Below are positions 1 through 49,892 of a DNA stretch of 64,000 nt, in pieces. The notes beneath the pieces were generated by a model. It was not told the DNA's origin. It made no database searches and worked only from the letters and a program-made list of their open reading frames with translations. Within the stretch, counting starts at the first letter, position 1, and every line of letters starts with the position of its first letter. The translations under genes were made by a program, and so were the position numbers. The stretch is from Candidatus Bathyarchaeota archaeon (GTDB lineage: Archaea > Thermoproteota > Bathyarchaeia > 40CM-2-53-6). The DNA is taken from positions 96,001 to 160,000 of the forward strand of contig CAVSBL010000002.1 in NCBI GenBank assembly GCA_963726255.1, read 5' to 3'.

Positions 1-815
1 ACAGAGTGTAGGTGGGAGCCTTCGAAGTCAACTCTTCGGGGTTGATGGAGGCAACAATGTAACACCACCTATCTGCGATCGCATCTCTAACTGTGCCTTA
101 GTGCACAGAACAACGGCTGGCGGGCAGTTCGGCTGGGGCGGCACCCCCTTGAAAAAATATCAAGGGGGCCCAAAGCTTGGCTCATCCGGGACAGAAACCC
201 GGAGTAGAGGGCAAGACCAAAAGCCAGGCTGACTGGATGCTCATCAGCAAGGCATCCAGAGGCGAAAGCCGGGTCTAGCGATCATTCATGTCCCCATTGT
301 TGGGGGCTGGATGTGACAGAAAAATTACCCCGGGAGTAATTGGCTCGTCTCCTCTGAGAGTCCCCATCGACGAGGAGGATTGGTTCTCCGCCGTCGTCCC
401 TTCCCATCCTGGGCCCGCAGCAGGGTCCAAGGGCGCGGCTGTTCGCCGATTAAAGGGGAATGCGAGATGGGTTTAGACCGTCGCGAGACAGGTCGGCCTC
501 TACCTGCTGGAAGTGCTGGTTGCCTGAGGGGAAGGCGCCCCTAGTACGAGAGGAACGGGGTATCGCAGCCTCTAGTTTACCGGTTGTCCGACAGGGCACT
601 GCCGGGCAGCCACGCTGTCGAGGATAAGGGCTGAAAGCATCTAAGCCTGAAGCCTCTCCCGAAAAAAGGCAGCCATTCTAACCCAAGACACCTGGCAACG
701 GGCGTCAGGGTTGGACAAGGGCTCCCAAAGAAGATGGGTTTGATGGAGCAGGCGTGTAAGCACGAAGACTTCGGTCGACGTGTTTAGCGCGCTGCCCCCA
801 ATCGCTCAAGGTGCT
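1..815 (+). rRNA. rrl: 23S rRNA gene, 3' portion (domains V-VI); 5' part lies outside the window, 3' end approximate
   Basis: Archaeal-type peptidyl-transferase-centre sequence (gttcgccgattaaag, gggtttagaccgtcgcgagacaggtcgg), sarcin-ricin loop ctagtacgagaggaac at ~541-556, and gctgaaagcatctaag. No 5S gene follows. Confidence 0.97.
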
Positions 816-957
816 GAACTGAAAATGGAATCCACCGTCAAATACACGTTCGAGGCCTATGCACGGTGCGAACCACTATCCCCTAACTCAGTTTTTTATA
901 CGTGTCACACCGTAGAATCCACTCCGAACTTTCCTTACAGACGACGGAGACCTGACC

Positions 958-2077: not shown

Positions 2078-2707
2078 ATGGCCGCGCAAGAACGGTGGCG
2101 GAGAGTTAAGGAAACAAGACGGAACTTCCTAAAGGTCATCTTGACCTTCTCGGGCCTGTTAGTTATTGGCGGCGTTGCGGCCATCGCCAAGTCCATTACA
2201 AATTCAGCTGAAGGCACGAAGAACCCTGTCGGAACAAAATCATTTCCAAGAGTAAAGGTCGCCCAACTGGCCGATTTGAGCGTCAATCAACCAGTGGTCT
2301 TTGCGTATCCATTGGACAATGAGCCGAACATTCTCGTTAAACTGGGGCAGAAGGCCGACGGTGGAGTTGGCCCGGAGGGTGACCTAGTCGCATTTAGCGG
2401 CGTCTGCCAGCACCTGGGATGCATCTACGCCTTTCAGGCACCCGGAACATCTCCGACGTGTAACGCTTCCTACAGCGCGGCAGGGCCGGAAGGGTATTGC
2501 TGTTGTCATGGGAGCGTCTTCGACTTTCTGCATGGAGCGAAAGTGCGTTCAGGCCCTTCTCCGAGGCCTCAACCTCAAGTTCTCTTGGAAGTTGACGAAT
2601 CAGGAAATGTCTACGCGACGGGAATGACTCCGCCTACGATCTTCGGACATAACACCGGATCCAACGACGTTTCCTCAGATCTTGAAGGCGGAAACCCAGT
2701 GAGTTAA
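2078..2707 (+). CDS. Rieske 2Fe-2S protein (SoxL/AioB-like) with Tat signal
   Basis: Twin-arginine RRNFLK plus TM; Rieske boxes CQHLGC and CCHGS; GPSPRP motif. Confidence 0.93.
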   Translation: MAAQERWRRVKETRRNFLKVILTFSGLLVIGGVAAIAKSITNSAEGTKNPVGTKSFPRVKVAQLADLSVNQPVVFAYPLDNEPNILVKLGQKADGGVGPEGDLVAFSGVCQHLGCIYAFQAPGTSPTCNASYSAAGPEGYCCCHGSVFDFLHGAKVRSGPSPRPQPQVLLEVDESGNVYATGMTPPTIFGHNTGSNDVSSDLEGGNPVS

Positions 2708-2712
2708 TCTCT

Positions 2713-4200
2713 GTGAAACGAAACGAATACGATAACACGCTTGCTCGTCTGGTTAAATGGTTCGATAGTAGGCTAGGGCTCTCTTACCCGCTCCTGAGGC
2801 CTGCCCCCGCCTATTCGATCAACCCATTCTACTGGTTGGGAGCGCTCACCGTCGTAGCCTTTCTGATTCAAGGTGTCACGGGCGTCATAATGATGCTCTA
2901 CTACGTCCCCAGCCCAGCCGCGGCTTTCCCGTCAACTCAGTACATCTTCCAGGATGTCTACTATGGTAGGTTTCTGCAGACCGTTCATCTCTACACAGCT
3001 TACGCGATGATAGTGCTAGCGTTCATGCACATGATGCGAGGTTACTTCGTGTCGGTCTACAAGAAGCCGAGAGAAATGATGTGGGTTGTTGGGATGGTGA
3101 TGGGCTTCGTTACGCTAGGTTTTGGCTTCACAGGATACTTACTTCCGTGGACCGTGATTTCAAAATCTGCCACTGACGTTGGAATCGGGATAATCGATGC
3201 CTTGCCGCCCTCGCTGGCCTCATTTGTAAGCTTCCTGGCCGTTGGTGCAGGCGGAGATGCTACGGAACTGCTTCGGTTCTACGATTTGCATGTCGTAGTC
3301 CTCCCAGCGGTCTTACTAGTTCTCCTCACAACAAAGATGTACATGCTGGAAACTCACGGCATCTCAAAACCAGCAACAGGCCAACCTGCTCGCGGGAAAG
3401 AAACCAAGCTAATCCCGATTTTTCCGGATGTTCTCATGTACCTCCTCGAACTGGCAGCCATCTTCGGGAGCATGATGTTACTGATCTCCGTCATCTTCCC
3501 CCTAAGCCTTCCTCCGCAGTACACTCCGGAACTCGCCGCCCAATTCGTCCCACAACCAGACTGGTACTTCCTCTGGATCTACCAAATTCTCAAGATCTCG
3601 ATATTCGAAGGGCCCGGTCTTCCGATAGCACTCGCGATGGTAACAATAGTCTTCATCGTGCTCATTCTTCTTCCTTTCATCGACCGCGGGGCGGGCAGGA
3701 TGATTCGTGAAAGGCCTATGCATGTTACCCTTGGCCTAATCTTCATCGGTGAACTGATTGTGCTTGCATATTGGGGGCTTCTGACGCCGGGCCAGATCAT
3801 TCCATTCGATCAAGCTGCGGCAGTCCTAGGAGGTACGGCCCTCGTCATCGCTCTAATCTCATTCCTTCTGTACGTACTGACACAGAGCAAGCGATCAGGC
3901 CAAGCCGGGGTCGCGAAACCGCCAACGGGGTTGCGGAGACTGCCCGTCGCGATTTGCTTCGTCGGTGTGATAGCGCTTGGTTCTCTTGGGATCGGCAGGT
4001 CCCTGAATGACGTCGTGGAGATGGCTTTGAGTGGGTTTAGTCTTGCGAGGGAGGTGAGCTTTGGCTTTTCGCTTTCTTTGATTGGGGTCGCAGTGCTTGC
4101 CGCGATGTACCTATTGTATTGGCTTGGGTTCGAAGAAGGTTCGCTCAAGAGGAGAATCTACTTGTTCGACCTAGGATTGAGGGCGAATGGACCAAAGTGA
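2713..4200 (+). CDS. Cytochrome b of a Rieske/cytochrome b complex (fused cytochrome b/subunit IV, SoxN-like)
   Basis: Heme-ligand His in VHLY, MHMMRG and LHVVVLP; GFTGYLLPW; PDWY (PEWY-equivalent) Qo motif; many TMs. Confidence 0.93.
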   Translation: MKRNEYDNTLARLVKWFDSRLGLSYPLLRPAPAYSINPFYWLGALTVVAFLIQGVTGVIMMLYYVPSPAAAFPSTQYIFQDVYYGRFLQTVHLYTAYAMIVLAFMHMMRGYFVSVYKKPREMMWVVGMVMGFVTLGFGFTGYLLPWTVISKSATDVGIGIIDALPPSLASFVSFLAVGAGGDATELLRFYDLHVVVLPAVLLVLLTTKMYMLETHGISKPATGQPARGKETKLIPIFPDVLMYLLELAAIFGSMMLLISVIFPLSLPPQYTPELAAQFVPQPDWYFLWIYQILKISIFEGPGLPIALAMVTIVFIVLILLPFIDRGAGRMIRERPMHVTLGLIFIGELIVLAYWGLLTPGQIIPFDQAAAVLGGTALVIALISFLLYVLTQSKRSGQAGVAKPPTGLRRLPVAICFVGVIALGSLGIGRSLNDVVEMALSGFSLAREVSFGFSLSLIGVAVLAAMYLLYWLGFEEGSLKRRIYLFDLGLRANGPK

Positions 4201-7017: not shown

Positions 7018-7110
7018 TGGTGGGCCTGGCCGGATTCGAACCGGCGACCCCACGATTTCTGAGAAGCACCCTATCAGTCGTGTGCTCCAGCCAAGCTGAG
7101 CTACAGGCCC
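7018..7110 (-). tRNA. tRNA-Ile(GAT) with a 15-nt canonical 37/38 intron (7057-7071), CCA encoded
   Basis: Minus strand GGGCCTGTAGCTCAGCTTGG...CACGA CT GAT A [intron] A TCGTG...GGTTCGAATCCGGCCAGGCCCACCA; clean bulge-helix-bulge (CTGA/TCAG). Confidence 0.95.
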
Positions 7111-36370: not shown

Positions 36371-37144
36371 CTAGCGTCCTAGCATGCCGAGTATTCCACC
36401 CAGCACGCCCAGAACGAATCCGGCCACGAAGCCACCGCCGATCAACAGGCTCAAGACCGCAAGTGGAAAGACGACTATGCTGCCTATGGTTCCGTATCCT
36501 AGTAGCATCAGTATTGACCCGATTACCAGTATGAGCCCGATTATCGCTCCTATAGCGAACGTCAAACTCGCCGGGCCAACAGCTGGCAACCAGAAGAAGA
36601 CGCCTGTCCATAGAGTGTAGAAGCTCGGTGAAAGCAAAGCTGCTGCGTTAAGTATCACAAGTATACCTGCGATCATTGCTAGTATGAAGCCCCAGAGCGC
36701 TCTCGGGGGAGCAGGTTGGTAAAGCGGGGGCAATGGTCCCATGAAGGGAGCCGGCGCTGCCATTGGGGGTGGACCGTAGGCGGGTTGCATAGGTGGCATT
36801 TGCATCGATGGCATTTGCTGTTGTGGAGCTGCTACCATCGGTACTACGCCTTGGTAACATTGCGGACAGAGTACAAGGTCCATGTAGGCCTTCGAGTCGT
36901 CGCGGCAGATTGCTCTTCCACAACGGTTGCAAACATAGACGGCGGGTAGGTTAGGGTGATAGTAACATTGGCCAGGTGCTGGAACCCTGATCGGGCTGCC
37001 AGGGCTGACAGGTGTTACAACGCGGACTGAAGGGACTGGTTTGAGCATGGGTCCTGCTGCGCCTGCGAGCGATGAGCCACAGCTTGAGCAGAATGCTGCG
37101 TCGTCGCGGTTGTTGTAGCCGCATGCTGGGCATTTTCTGACCAT
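36371..37144 (-). CDS. Zinc ribbon, B-box-like finger, Pro/Met-rich linker and C-terminal TMs
   Basis: CPACG...CSSCG; CYYH-x7-CNRCGRAIC...CPQC; 3-4 hydrophobic helices; Shine-Dalgarno aggagg upstream. Confidence 0.8.
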   Translation of the reverse strand: MVRKCPACGYNNRDDAAFCSSCGSSLAGAAGPMLKPVPSVRVVTPVSPGSPIRVPAPGQCYYHPNLPAVYVCNRCGRAICRDDSKAYMDLVLCPQCYQGVVPMVAAPQQQMPSMQMPPMQPAYGPPPMAAPAPFMGPLPPLYQPAPPRALWGFILAMIAGILVILNAAALLSPSFYTLWTGVFFWLPAVGPASLTFAIGAIIGLILVIGSILMLLGYGTIGSIVVFPLAVLSLLIGGGFVAGFVLGVLGGILGMLGR

Positions 37145-37560
37145 TTTCCTAATTAGCCTCCTTTAGTTAATTTAACTCGGAAATACGCTGCCGTCGTCAA
37201 CGCACTTAAGCGTTTGCTTAACTATTGGCAAATTGGTGAATGATAAAAGCGCAATAATACCATTTTTTAACGCAAAACGTTGTCACTGGGTCTAGAGACC
37301 CCGTTCTCTTGTTACTGGTATACCTGTAATAGGGGTTTTTCACTAATGACACCATGTAGTTCCGTTTAGAACGCTTGTCACTCAGAAGAATGTCCGATCG
37401 CCTAGTCGCCCAGCGAGTTATCCTTCGGAGACAAAGTTCTCAAGAACTGAGTAAGGTTCTATCAACCTTGTCGTTATTCTACACGACTTCTCTTCAGAAA
37501 TGCCGGGTGTCTTCTCAGCACATATTTAGCGAAGTTGTGTATAGGGCAGCCCGCTCGAAG

Positions 37561-37669
37561 GCCCCGGTGGCTCAGCCTGGTAGAAACAAGACAACGCCAA
37601 AAGCGCCGCCTTGGTAACGAACAGACAAAGAGGCGAAGGTCGTGGGTTCAAATCCCGCCCGGGGCTCCA
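37561..37669 (+). tRNA. tRNA-Thr(GGT) with two introns (D-arm 37584-37601; canonical 37617-37630)
   Basis: GCCCCGG/CCGGGGC acceptor stem, T discriminator, CCA; CCGCC-TT-GGT-A..A-GGCGA (one C:A mismatch); TTCAAAT T-loop. Confidence 0.9.
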
Positions 37670-38697
37670 ACTTCTGTCAGACCGTCAATGGGCCGGATTC
37701 TGACCCATCTGCGACCTTGTTTTTCATAGAGGCGTCTCCATTCGATAGCGGCTCGTCGTGCGTCATATGACTCTAGTAGGCGGAGGGCGACGGACATCTT
37801 CTCGTGCTTTCTTTCCAGTCCGAACCCGATGACTTCACAAAATCGCTTTTGATCCAGCCGGCTCGAAATGGTGAGATGATAACATCGACGTTTGCTCCAC
37901 ATTGGCTTTCGCTTTCTCTCTTGGAAGATTCTTGAACGTATGCCGAACCGCGTTTCTAACAATCCTTGGATGTACACCAAAAGCCAATGCTTAGTGTTGA
38001 CCAGGACGACATAGAGGGCGAGATTACGAACAATCTCAGAGGTGCTAGATGATCTTGTGTAGACTGAAACTACTGGCGAGCCTTCGGCGTCCGCAAATCC
38101 CCTTATGAACTCGGAGGGATAGACACCTGTAGTTTCCCGAATTCTTTGCCAATCTGAGAGGAATTCAAAAAGCAATCTGCTCCAGAATCTAACTACAAAG
38201 AATCCTTTCTTATCGAAGAAGGGCAGCTTCTTTTTTCCCAAGACAACGCTCGCGCAAGTTGCTACAGTTTCGGCGAATTGCCGATCTCTCACCCTCAATC
38301 GCAATTCATAGTGGAATGCACTGCTTTTGATAAGGGCACCATCGCCGAGAAAGGCGCCCGCAACATAGCTCAATGAAGTAGAAGGACGAAGGTCTGGATT
38401 CGTGCAGCTACCAAAAGGGGAGTTTATTCCACGTAACCAATTGTACACAGTGGGACATGGAAGTCCCAGCAGCTTGGCAATCCGAGTGTGATCCATGCCT
38501 CGCTCTCTGTTTAGTTCTAGCACAACCGGGTATGCAGCCACCCTCTCAGCCAGCGAAATCCGCCTGGACGTTTTGACTGGCATGGATAAATGTCCAGTAG
38601 CTTTGACAGATGTTGCCGGTCATTAGTATGAGAGCTTAGTGAAAGTGTTCTGAGATAATCGCCTGACTTGTGGGTTCAATTCCCGCCCGGGGCTCCA
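37642..38697. mobile_element. ~1 kb tRNA-integrated element bounded by 28-bp direct repeats and carrying only a LAGLIDADG gene
   Basis: gtgggttcaa(a/t)tcccgcccggggctcca at 37642-37669 and 38670-38697 (27/28 identical). Confidence 0.85.
37648..38583 (-). CDS. Free-standing HTH plus double-motif LAGLIDADG endonuclease
   Basis: HTH (RIAKLLGLPCPTVYNWLRG); LAGLIDADG helices LSYVAGAFLGDG and SEFIRGFADAEG; no intein splice motifs. Confidence 0.9.
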   Translation of the reverse strand: MPVKTSRRISLAERVAAYPVVLELNRERGMDHTRIAKLLGLPCPTVYNWLRGINSPFGSCTNPDLRPSTSLSYVAGAFLGDGALIKSSAFHYELRLRVRDRQFAETVATCASVVLGKKKLPFFDKKGFFVVRFWSRLLFEFLSDWQRIRETTGVYPSEFIRGFADAEGSPVVSVYTRSSSTSEIVRNLALYVVLVNTKHWLLVYIQGLLETRFGIRSRIFQERKRKPMWSKRRCYHLTISSRLDQKRFCEVIGFGLERKHEKMSVALRLLESYDARRAAIEWRRLYEKQGRRWVRIRPIDGLTEVGAPGGI

Positions 38698-38967
38698 GCT
38701 AAACTCAAACTCAGCGTGTCCAATTACTCGTCGGTAATGTGCGGGGTTTTCGGTTTTTCTTGTGTTCGCGCGGGCTTATGTCATTCGACACCTAACGACA
38801 TGTACCTTGTCTGAACGGTCGGCTGACCTGCTAGGCGCTAACTGCGCGGGCTCGATGGTATCGGAGTCGTTCCACGCTATCGTAGCAGGATGAGAAGAAT
38901 GAGTGGTTATTTGTGATACGAACTCAAAGAAAAGAGTTCGCGAAGACTTGAAGGCTTTCGTCTGTGC

Positions 38968-39057
38968 TTAGTGCGCTGACTTTGCGTGTGCTTCAAGTTC
39001 TTCCCTTGTTTTGAAGAACATTTTGCAAGCAGGGCAAACATATGTTCCTAGAGACAA
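38968..39057 (-). CDS. Unannotated 29-aa single C2H2 zinc-finger microprotein (MSLGTYVCPACKMFFKTREELEAHAKSAH)
   Basis: Translated by hand; Y-x-C-x2-C-x3-F-x5-L-x2-H-x4-H consensus; GGTGA Shine-Dalgarno 5 nt upstream of TTG. Confidence 0.8.
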   Translation of the reverse strand: MSLGTYVCPACKMFFKTREELEAHAKSAH

Positions 39058-39165
39058 TCAACTCACCAGTTGAGAATTACAGGCGCTTGGATATATTAAA
39101 TGGCTTGAATGCTTCAACCCAAGAAAAGGTAGATCAATGGACCGTGCTAGGCCTAACTTGATTTG

Positions 39166-39573
39166 CTAACGAGGCTTCTTTCGCTTGTCGGTGCCGAAGA
39201 GCTCAATCCAGATTCCGTCCGGGTCCTTTACGTAGGCTAATCTCTCGCGGCCATTAGAGAAGGGTGCAACTGCTCTCTTAGCCCCCTTTGCGATGAGCAT
39301 GGCATAAGTTCGGTCAACATCATCGGCCCAGAACCCAATATGGTCCATCTCCGTTCCTGGCCGGTACCGTTCGTAAAACTTGTTCCGGGACGGATAGTAG
39401 TTGAGTTCCAACCTCTGCGCCGATCCGGGCTTCTTGAGGTGGACGAAGACTCCTCCGTGGTGCATAGTTCCCCTGTGAATTACCTTCATGCCCAAGACTT
39501 TCGTGTAGAACCGAAGCGACCGGTTCAGGTTGCTTACTCGAATGCCAAAGTAAACGAAGCGCATAGGTACCAA
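39166..39573 (-). CDS. VOC/glyoxalase-family protein
   Basis: GIRVSNL.RS..FYT.VLG, LELNY, HIGF, DPDGIWIEL. Confidence 0.9.
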   Translation of the reverse strand: MVPMRFVYFGIRVSNLNRSLRFYTKVLGMKVIHRGTMHHGGVFVHLKKPGSAQRLELNYYPSRNKFYERYRPGTEMDHIGFWADDVDRTYAMLIAKGAKRAVAPFSNGRERLAYVKDPDGIWIELFGTDKRKKPR

Positions 39574-39687
39574 CCATTAATTCACCTACTTGGTTATGTA
39601 AGAAGCTTGCCAGCGTGGGACGGTAAATGACGCGCCGGAGGTTTGAAAAGGCGCAAATGAAAGTTGAGGGGCTGAGGGAAGCTTGGC

Positions 39688-48262: not shown

Positions 48263-48372
48263 TGGTGCCGGGGGCGGGGTTCGAACCCGCGGCTTCTGGG
48301 CCCACGGCTCTCCAGATTATGAGTTTCGTCCCTTAAGCCTGGCTGGCGCTCTACCAGCTGAGCCACCCCGGC
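48263..48372 (-). tRNA. tRNA-Met(CAT), elongator type, with two non-canonical introns (30/31: 48325-48342; 45/46: 48294-48309)
   Basis: GCCGGGG/CCCCGGC-A-CCA; CCAG[intron]A-CT-CAT-AA-TCTGG; perfect BHB (CTGG/CCAG) in the variable loop. Confidence 0.9.
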
Positions 48373-49779: not shown

Positions 49780-49892
49780 GCCTCGGTGGCTCAGCCTGGT
49801 AGATGCCCTACATTGGGCACTGGGGAGCAGCCGCCTTGTAACTGAATCAGGAGAGCGGCAGGTCGCGGGTTCGAACCCCGCCCGAGGCTCCA
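49780..49892 (+). tRNA. tRNA-Thr(TGT) with two introns (D-arm ~49803-49825; canonical 49841-49853)
   Basis: GCCTCGG/CCGAGGC-T-CCA; GCCGC-CT-TGT-A..A-GCGGC; TTCGAAC T-loop. Confidence 0.92.

Follow-up and report, generated by a model that had tools for sequence, protein, structure and literature searches.

We analysed a 64,000-nucleotide stretch (the window) of contig CAVSBL010000002.1 from a Candidatus Bathyarchaeota archaeon, in which the 3' end of a tRNA-Thr(GGT) gene is present twice and a single gene, coding for a LAGLIDADG endonuclease with an N-terminal helix-turn-helix (HTH) domain, lies between the two copies (Table 1). The genome to which the window belongs (G000) comprises 2.42 Mb and is 98.5% complete. 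The tRNA gene is matched by the Rfam model RF00005 at 37561-37666 with 38.8 bits (gathering score 29), has its anticodon GGT at 37613-37615 and contains two introns, at ~37585-37602 in the D-arm and at ~37618-37631 beside the anticodon loop, the limits of both being read by eye. ARAGORN, which reports one tRNA in the window in total, misses this gene, apparently because of its two introns. The second copy of the 3' end starts 1028 bp downstream of the first. Over the core of the repeat, from the 5' strand of the T-stem to the encoded CCA, the copies agree at 27 of 28 positions, and over the extended repeat (37642-37672 against 38670-38700) at 29 of 31. The local alignment scores 52, whereas 100-200 shuffles of the far-side region reached at most 24-28.

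Table 1. Features of the duplicated tRNA-Thr locus and of the element inserted there, followed by a further window feature
Feature	Position	Strand	Remarks
tRNA-Thr(GGT) gene with encoded CCA (37667-37669)	37561..37669	+	Rfam RF00005 and sequence reading
Repeat copy 1 (B*): T-arm, acceptor 3' strand, discriminator and CCA of the working tRNA	37642..37669	+	
Repeat copy 2 (B'): displaced tRNA 3' end	38670..38697	+	no tRNA 5' part before it
Unique body of the inserted element, 1000 bp	37670..38669	.	not in the same-genus relatives G021, G004, G015, G014, G011
HTH-LAGLIDADG endonuclease gene, 311 aa	37648..38583	-	stop included
N-terminal three-helix (HTH-like) domain, residues ~11-51	38431..38553	-	AlphaFold2 helices 11-28, 32-39, 43-51
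LAGLIDADG motif 1, residues ~69-82 (GAFLGDG), catalytic Asp81	38338..38379	-	model helix 69-81
LAGLIDADG motif 2, residues ~156-168 (GFADAEG), catalytic Glu167	38080..38118	-	model helix 156-167
Archaeal large-subunit rRNA	1-821		Rfam

The displaced copy has an altered T-loop (TTCAATT) and is followed directly by GCTAAACT. Among the 38 tRNA-like genes that a T-arm/acceptor heuristic (see below) finds in the genome, tRNA-Thr alone has a copy of one of its ends close by (last 20 nt, at most 2 mismatches, at most 3 kb away). The GC content of the inserted body is 0.487, that of the genome 0.511.

The endonuclease open reading frame (ORF) runs on the strand opposite to the tRNA and shares its final 22 nt with the tRNA 3' end, where TCA of the T-loop, read on the other strand, provides the TGA stop. 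It has its own start within an open frame of 323 aa, lies outside the tRNA introns and has no extein flanks; the gene is thus free-standing, borne neither by an intein nor by an intron. Other ORFs of at least 40 aa overlap the interval in other frames, and support was found for none of them. The initial annotation, made from the letters of the window and its ORFs, had described the 28-nt repeat at this spacing and with this identity, and had called the sole gene between the copies a two-motif LAGLIDADG endonuclease with an N-terminal HTH that resides in neither an intron nor an intein. Alignment and shuffling bear out the first statement, the layout of the frame and the protein analysis given below the others. 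Many ORFs of the same family end in ...GG(I/R)(I/T)-stop (window 37648-37669; L011, L012, L013, L202); the final codons of these ORFs are antisense to the acceptor and T-arm of the tRNA, and their TGA stop complements the T-loop.

The protein matches the Pfam family LAGLIDADG_3 (PF14528) with an E value of 1.9e-13 and 50.9 bits against a cut-off of 22.5. Weak matches below the cut-off were obtained with LAGLIDADG_WhiA (residues 72-109), HTH_23 (residues 21-53; 8.1e-4) and Sigma70_r4_2 (1.3e-3). In an alignment of family members (A1), Gly80, Asp81 and Gly82 of the first motif are invariant in all 11 members, as are Asp165 and Gly168 of the second motif, while Glu167 is present in at least 90% of the rows and replaced by Asp in one; Trp49, Gly52 and Pro56 are almost invariant across the aligned family. 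A profile built from A1 matches, over profile positions 72-247, the solved structures 2dch (3.9e-13), listed as a putative homing endonuclease and titled I-Tsp061I in the Foldseek listing, and I-DmoI (1.3e-12). The AlphaFold2 model of the 311-aa protein (predicted local distance difference test 85.2, predicted template modelling score 0.76) consists of the N-terminal three-helix domain (11-51), two alpha-beta LAGLIDADG halves and C-terminal helices (242-285). Its pseudo-symmetric alpha-beta-beta-alpha-beta-beta-alpha double fold is matched by I-Tsp061I, I-DmoI and I-OnuI with a Foldseek probability of 1.00, the top match being I-Tsp061I (target-normalised template modelling score 0.70; I-DmoI 0.69-0.74). 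From profile and model the protein is predicted to be a monomeric two-motif LAGLIDADG endonuclease of the I-DmoI type.

The ratio of non-synonymous to synonymous substitution rates (dN/dS) was computed for 12 within-clade pairs, two of which gave no estimate. In nine of the remaining ten it is 0.14-0.32, and in the tenth, a nearly identical pair, 0.62. The catalytic residues are conserved and under purifying selection. The only other LAGLIDADG_3 match in the genome (G000:C2:1802581-1802862, L201) falls in an open frame of 1619 aa at another place on the contig, where it presumably marks an intein of a large host protein.

To look for the site without the element, we searched the 23 genomes of the genus at the DNA level with window positions 36900-39600 and found the flanks in all of them. 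In the closest case, G021, the flanks are ~95% identical, the tRNA-Thr gene is 98% identical over 169 nt, and the tRNA is followed directly by GCTAAACT, the same eight bases that follow the displaced copy in the window. With three mismatches, these 169 nt carry little information on a co-conversion tract beside the insertion. In G004, G015 and G014 the distance between tRNA-Thr and the downstream glyoxalase-family gene is shorter by ~1.1 kb. Both forms also occur in contigs of X2 and X4, two further runs of the study to which the source sample probably belongs: the occupied form is present in X2 (record 13, 37613-38296, zero differences), and the G021-like empty junction appears as loose ends after 37669 (X2) and after 38705 (X4). 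These represent two co-occurring strains and not a polymorphism within one strain. As a separate observation, the stretch of G021 beyond the junction (L022, G021:C126, reverse complement, ~2280-3033) measures ~750 bp against 145 bp in the window (38706-38850); the extra sequence holds an inverted copy (79%) of window 38713-38795 and is also found in the X2 and X4 contigs, so that the downstream flank of tRNA-Thr may be a hot spot of rearrangement.

The empty allele bears on one alternative origin of the repeat, namely that copy 2 is an alternative 3' exon of the tRNA and the 1-kb interval a giant intron or the spacer of a split gene. The many non-canonical tRNA introns of this archaeal lineage and the T-arm-like shape that the displaced copy retains at some loci would fit such an arrangement. 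The tRNA is complete without copy 2, however, the ORF between the copies is antisense, copy 2 carries the T-loop change TTCAATT here and is decayed at other loci, and the empty allele joins the tRNA straight to the flank. We regard this origin as barely credible, and the complete tRNA, the antisense ORF and the empty allele led us to reject it.

We then asked how often the arrangement recurs. When 61 relatives were first searched with the protein, 12 genomes had matches, and Rfam placed a tRNA next to 8 of the 16 loci. A multi-intron tRNA-Thr(GGT) that Rfam had missed likewise adjoins the three closest homologues (50-57% identical). At its gathering score Rfam misses most multi-intron tRNAs (a tRNA was found in these 8 of 16 loci and then in 3 of 20, with 4 matches). 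Because Rfam and ARAGORN both overlook such genes, we used our own T-arm/acceptor heuristic; it in turn misses tRNAs with T-loop introns, and counts of loci with no adjacent tRNA are therefore upper bounds. Elsewhere in the window Rfam finds three more tRNAs (7021-7110, minus strand; 48266-48372, minus strand; 49780-49889, plus strand), which are 90-110 nt long and intron-bearing; of these ARAGORN gives only 7021-7110, with the anticodon undetermined.

In the host family of Bathyarchaeia, a profile search returned 37 free-standing matches in 18 of 59 genomes. By the heuristic, 22 of the 37 genes lie tail-to-tail with a tRNA 3' end, and one more (G064a) does so with a repeat of 45 nt whose end is a tRNA 3' end containing an intron-like insert. 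Three are convergent with the 3' end of the gene for an Fe/Mn superoxide dismutase (sod), so that the ORF converges with a tRNA or with sod at 26 of the 37 loci. Six lie on the same strand just 5' of a tRNA 5' end, mostly as short forms lacking the HTH, and five between a thiolase gene and a DUF35/ChsH2 gene that share their strand. The target tRNAs include Thr(GGT), Pro(TGG), Val(GAC), Val(CAC), Arg(TCG), Pro(CGG) and several others; their anticodons were read by eye, Arg(TCG) and Pro(CGG) being so read once each. By chance, a gene is expected to end convergently within 150 nt of a tRNA 3' end at a rate of ~0.2% (38 tRNAs, 2.42 Mb).

The members in the thiolase operon (L070, L072, L073, L074, L058) come from five genomes of a sister genus, measure 316-322 aa in four and a 423-aa frame in the fifth, and have no flanking repeats; they are either operon-resident homing endonucleases or domesticated copies.

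Outside the host family the distribution is uneven. In a class-level sample of 301 genomes searched at E ≤1e-25, 15 of 43 genomes of the host family have a match compared with 0 of 257 from other families. In a phylum-level sample, matches occur in 45 of 401 genomes, mainly within a few other families and frequently as several copies per genome; among 40 phylum-level loci examined, 16 are convergent with a tRNA and one is of the same-strand type. In one genome (G402) all five full-length copies are convergent with five different tRNAs. A library of 1.8 billion proteins contains 460 clusters at E ≤1e-30, and a word-indexed protein search gave 24 proteins, all unnamed but one, which is labelled 'intein-encoded DNA endonuclease-like'. 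A related-locus search found no relative, either with the single window protein or with a protein of locus L202. In another Thermoproteota lineage (L181, G531:C3, oriented 1098-1191 and 1325-1418), two identical whole tRNA-Val(CAC) genes 227 nt apart adjoin an endonuclease gene of the family.

The duplication recurs together with the gene. At thirteen of the 22 convergent loci of the host family, a copy of the tRNA 3' end lies beyond the endonuclease gene and outscores each of 100 shuffles; to these can be added G007b, which falls just under this criterion and has a T-arm copy by inspection. Across the loci the repeats are spaced 853-1264 bp apart, and the displaced copy keeps a T-arm-like shape at some loci and is decayed at others. 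Among the six loci of the same-strand type, 3 pass the criterion, with an upstream duplicate of the tRNA 5' end (G028c, 17/19) or of the anticodon region (G001a, 16/17). At the sod loci the repeat is diverged and comprises 62-90 nt of the coding 3' end with many differences of the synonymous type. Taken together, the window appears to contain one member of a large, apparently undescribed family that does likewise at many other tRNA genes.

That the interval is what deletion has left of a larger integrated virus or plasmid once equipped with an integrase is hard to reconcile with this recurrence. Decayed integrated elements at archaeal tRNA genes provide a general precedent, the sole point in its favour. 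Against it, the same one-gene unit of ~0.85-1.3 kb is found at many independent targets and genomes, relatives have empty sites where larger islands would be expected, and the gene is intact and under purifying selection. We consider this origin very improbable and rejected it on these grounds.

Comparison of occupied and cassette-free genomes indicates which of the two copies is the newcomer. tRNA-Val(GAC) was found in 20 of the 23 genomes of the genus. In one sub-lineage its T-stem is GAGAG/CTCTC in the seven genomes that lack the cassette. In the occupied genomes of that sub-lineage, G014 and G007, the working tRNA-Val has GGTGG/CCGCC, the changes being compensatory, while the displaced copy has the GAGAG/CTCTC-type stem; in G007 this copy is followed by the same flank as in cassette-free G005. 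The genome G004, from the other sub-lineage, whose native stem is GCCGG/CCGGC, combines GAGAG/CTCTC in the tRNA with GATGG/CCGTC in the displaced copy, and its endonuclease belongs to an unrelated lineage. In G020 the tRNA-Val(GAC) has the 'foreign' T-stem GGTGG/CCGCC with no endonuclease match in the genome (L222, G020:C50:1-2005; the contig ends ~400 nt downstream), which is either an unassembled cassette or a conversion footprint. At sod, the in-gene 3' ends of the occupied genomes resemble each other (G007-G001 87%, G007-G011 84%), and the displaced copy of G007 is nearest to the end in cassette-free G020 (80%) compared with 72% to its own in-gene copy. The copy patterns at Val(GAC) and sod thus show that the cassette brings a replacement end and that the native end is pushed downstream.

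Within the Thr clade, the left edge of the displaced copy falls at the same tRNA position (~47-49) in G000, G028, G076 and G034, which represent four genera. Alignment of these edges makes it likely that the insertion point lies inside the tRNA gene, at the boundary of variable loop and T-stem around position 47-49. The tRNA-Thr(GGT) genes of the cassette-free genomes G004, G015 and G014 (L023, L024, L025) contain a third intron in the T-loop; in G028 and G076 (L042, L045) the displaced copy has a T-loop intron and the working tRNA has none. Insertion of the cassette therefore goes along with intron loss at the T-loop.

To relate the proteins to their targets we built a tree of 59 proteins with a quick maximum-likelihood run of IQ-TREE, 7 of 66 rows having been dropped as short, broken or failing the motif regular expression. 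The target groups are recovered with Shimodaira-Hasegawa-like approximate likelihood ratio supports of 99 for Thr 3', 100 each for Pro(TGG) 3', Arg(TCG) 3', sod, the thiolase operon and Pro(CGG) 5', and 95 for one further tRNA group. The protein clades match their targets, and Val(GAC) is targeted by two unrelated endonuclease lineages. Between the Thr loci of G023, G028 and G076, the tRNA and the cassette alone are common (77-81%, ~1.1 kb), homology of the flanks not being detected; for the Arg loci, collinearity between G023 and G073 extends over 3.8 kb. The Pro(TGG) cassettes of G017 and G019 (L046, L047) agree at 93% over a 629-nt block against a genome background of ~87%, with the other half of the gene unaligned at the nucleotide level; the structure of these two cassettes is mosaic. 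Broken copies occur as well, with an internal TAG in G034, an N-terminal truncation in G007b and a 126-aa remnant beside sod in G011, which fits the life cycle of homing endonucleases.

We next looked for recombinases. Between the repeats of the window no recombinase gene was found, the one supported ORF being that of the LAGLIDADG protein. Genome-wide, at E ≤0.01, G000 has no match to the tyrosine recombinase family PF00589 (positive in 14 of 14 controls), to the SSV-type integrase family PF16795 (3 of 14) or to the serine recombinase family PF00239 (12 of 14). As PF00589 is unmatched throughout the genome, no XerA-type enzyme is detected either.

These searches have to be set against a second mobile interpretation, in which the element is a miniature integrative satellite moved in trans by the tyrosine integrase of a virus or plasmid with the same tRNA site, and the LAGLIDADG-HTH protein is cargo or a DNA-binding accessory. 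A repeated tRNA 3' end of which the tRNA holds the foreign version while the native one is displaced has the form of classical attL/attR sites, and phages are known to integrate into the 3' ends of protein genes while providing a replacement end. A similar tRNA-flanked insertion has been read in this way in the accessible text of PMC3293823. The satellite reading is weakened by the lack of any recombinase detected in the genome and by the constant presence of the endonuclease with its conserved catalytic residues. A gene of integrase size fits between the repeats at none of the loci, some members duplicate tRNA 5' ends or occupy an operon without repeats, and the protein clades follow their targets. 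Overall we judge an integrase acting in trans to be unlikely.

We also considered whether the protein has been domesticated as a DNA-binding host regulator or a maintenance factor of tRNA loci, the repeats being incidental local duplications. Its low dN/dS over large synonymous distances, the added HTH domain and the thiolase-operon copy kept without repeats in five genomes would suit a host role. The patchy occurrence in 18 of 59 family genomes with empty sites in close relatives, the variable copy number and many different targets, and the existence of broken copies alongside kept catalytic residues argue against it. A domesticated function is, in our estimate, improbable.

Our preferred interpretation, which we hold to be probably correct, is that the ~1-kb element is a selfish cassette, built around a homing endonuclease, that exchanges the terminal part of its target gene for its own, the cleavage activity and mobility being what we infer. 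The enzyme would recognise and cut the uninterrupted tRNA-Thr gene of cassette-free relatives near the boundary of variable loop and T-stem (~47-49), and the break would be repaired from a cassette-bearing copy. Repair would copy in the replacement tRNA 3' end (B*), followed by the oppositely oriented endonuclease gene, both placed before the old end (B'), such that the tRNA would remain whole and functional. The old 3' end would persist as the downstream repeat and, with the tRNA body, could provide the homology arms for repair even where the flanks differ. Base changes of B* beside the junction, together with the loss of the 5' half-site from B', would protect the occupied allele from being cut again. 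We suggest that the displaced tRNA end may also serve as the right-hand arm of homology in genomes with other flanks, and that the occupied allele may be immune through the base changes by the junction. Cleavage and its position, immunity and repair-mediated spread are, in this scheme, predictions drawn from comparative sequence data.

The initial annotation had viewed the element as a selfish, tRNA-targeting endonuclease cassette that homes into the tRNA 3' flank or uses a host recombinase. The homing form of this view is supported by the recurrence of the unit, the empty sites and the lack of a detectable recombinase, whereas the insertion point has to be moved from the flank into the tRNA gene itself, with the element carrying a replacement for the 3' part. 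tRNA targeting holds mainly for tRNA 3' ends and has to be widened to sod 3' ends, tRNA 5' ends and a thiolase operon. The annotation had also advised searching for empty alleles, which exist in same-genus relatives including the ~95% identical G021, and among the observations that would speak against a cassette it had named homologues with no tRNA association and relatives with a larger integrase-bearing island at the site. Instead we find a strong tail-to-tail association with tRNA genes, mostly with a duplicated end, and an empty site in the relatives.

Several observations weigh against the homing interpretation. The repeats alone cannot discriminate, since insertion by an integrase yields the same repeat and the same pattern of foreign and native ends. 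In the window itself this pattern is not visible, because the two copies differ too little: compared with the empty allele of G021, the tRNA copy differs at 1 of 28 positions (T-stem GTGGG against GCGGG) and the displaced copy at two, one shared with the tRNA copy and one in the T-loop. The empty site of G021 is not a pristine counterpart, its flank being rearranged 8 nt past the junction (an inversion and ~600 bp). No circular or element-skipping joint of the G000-like strain was seen in the contigs of 4 runs, contigs being poor at capturing rare forms. A near-identical copy in a distant genome was not found, and the best full-length relatives are 57-59% identical. In other lineages of the phylum, G626 has the only clearly significant duplicate among 12 tRNA-adjacent loci tested, and a further 5 such loci gave a significant duplicate in none; the remaining 23 of the 40 phylum-level loci have no adjacent tRNA by the heuristic, which is blind to T-loop introns. 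Finally, long-term purifying selection could equally mean a host function.

Among known systems, the closest in logic are the mobile ORFs (mORFs) of fungal mitochondria, which according to the accessible text of PMC3630166 form 'hybrid genes' such as atp6-ORF360 of Allomyces macrogynus and atp6, atp9, cox2 and nad3 of Glomus. The native terminal part there resembles close relatives and the inserted terminal part is foreign (PMC3630166). Measured against that description, the cassettes share a free-standing endonuclease ORF that arrives with a foreign gene end, a native end displaced as a diverged duplicate and a gene that stays functional, as seen here at tRNA-Val(GAC) and sod. As far as the same text goes, they differ in residing on archaeal chromosomes and not in organelles, in targeting mainly tRNA genes (at the 3' end or, for one subfamily, the 5' end), in an ORF that is usually antisense and ends inside the target where mORFs lie on the same strand as the host gene and often in phase with it, and in the extra N-terminal HTH; the archaeal elements are known here from sequence alone. 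The suggestion of the initial annotation that the element might represent an undescribed class is therefore limited by the mORF precedent, and also by a tRNA-flanked insertion of similar kind that was reported from Caldiarchaeum under another interpretation (see below). What is new here are the archaeal chromosomes, the ends of tRNA genes (3' and 5') as main targets, the antisense overlapping layout and the added HTH.

By profile and fold the closest relatives are I-DmoI and I-Tsp061I, monomeric enzymes of archaeal rRNA introns, which share the two motifs and the catalytic acidic residues. The genes of these two lie within bulge-helix-bulge introns, in sense orientation to the rRNA genes, whereas the cassette enzyme is free-standing and antisense to the tRNA. 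It is also ~110 residues longer, owing to the HTH and the C-terminal helices, and its target is kept whole by duplication and not by splicing. With integrase-type elements at archaeal tRNA genes (SSV-type and pNOB8-type) the cassette has in common the direct repeat of the target at both ends; unlike them it measures ~1 kb, consists of one endonuclease gene and has no integrase, none being detected in the genome either. The SegB protein of phage T4 is a free-standing endonuclease beside the phage tRNA cluster; it belongs to the GIY-YIG type and promotes its own inheritance by cutting the cassette-free allele. SegB differs from the cassette in its location in a phage genome and in having no duplicated tRNA end.

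In Caldiarchaeum subterraneum, a 1,868-bp insertion at tRNA-Thr(GGU), composed of an 813-bp ORF 'b' and a 545-bp repeat 'a' and present in multiple copies, is described in the accessible text of Sugahara et al. 2012 (PMC3293823). It has the working tRNA on one side and a displaced 5' fragment of a tRNA on the other and has been linked there to intron gain and to tRNA fragmentation and splitting (PMC3293823). ORF b was assigned with SVMProt as a putative recombinase/integrase with DNA binding, and recombination between attP and attB was proposed (PMC3293823). Compared by that description only, the one-ORF, tRNA-flanked geometry resembles our 5'-end subfamily; the reading as an integrase differs from ours, and the term 'homing endonuclease' does not occur in the accessible text (PMC3293823). 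For Asgard tRNA introns, the accessible part of a 2026 preprint (10.64898/2026.10.13.758758) leaves the route of intron arrival open, and the term 'homing' is not in its main text. Our search of the open-access full-text literature returned no paper linking LAGLIDADG genes to duplicated tRNA ends in archaea, and the archaeal tRNA papers among its results do not use the term LAGLIDADG.

Outside organelles and phages, homing endonucleases are thought of as passengers of introns and inteins. If our interpretation is true, archaeal chromosomes harbour a large family of free-living homing endonucleases that spare the host gene by duplication and not by splicing. Direct repeats of tRNA ends would then not be a safe signature of an integrase, which matters for calling integrated elements in archaea. 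Each clade would represent a natural meganuclease with a defined and highly conserved target of 20-odd bp in a tRNA gene, a possible source of tools. The cassettes would also offer a candidate mechanism for the disruption of tRNA genes, the present data tying the elements to the replacement of T-stems and to the presence and absence of introns. More tentatively, and with less than even confidence, we raise the possibility that such cassettes are a principal driver of tRNA gene disruption in Thermoproteota and that the displaced end is a portable homology arm and not a scar. In that case, as tRNA genes are cut and foreign copies take the place of their ends, T-stems would be swapped, introns at the junction added and removed and tRNA fragments scattered, introns that break target sites would be selected for, and a cassette could home into the same tRNA in unrelated genomes by means of its displaced end. 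The long-debated origin of multi-intron and split tRNAs in archaea would thereby gain a testable agent, an endonuclease and not an integrase.

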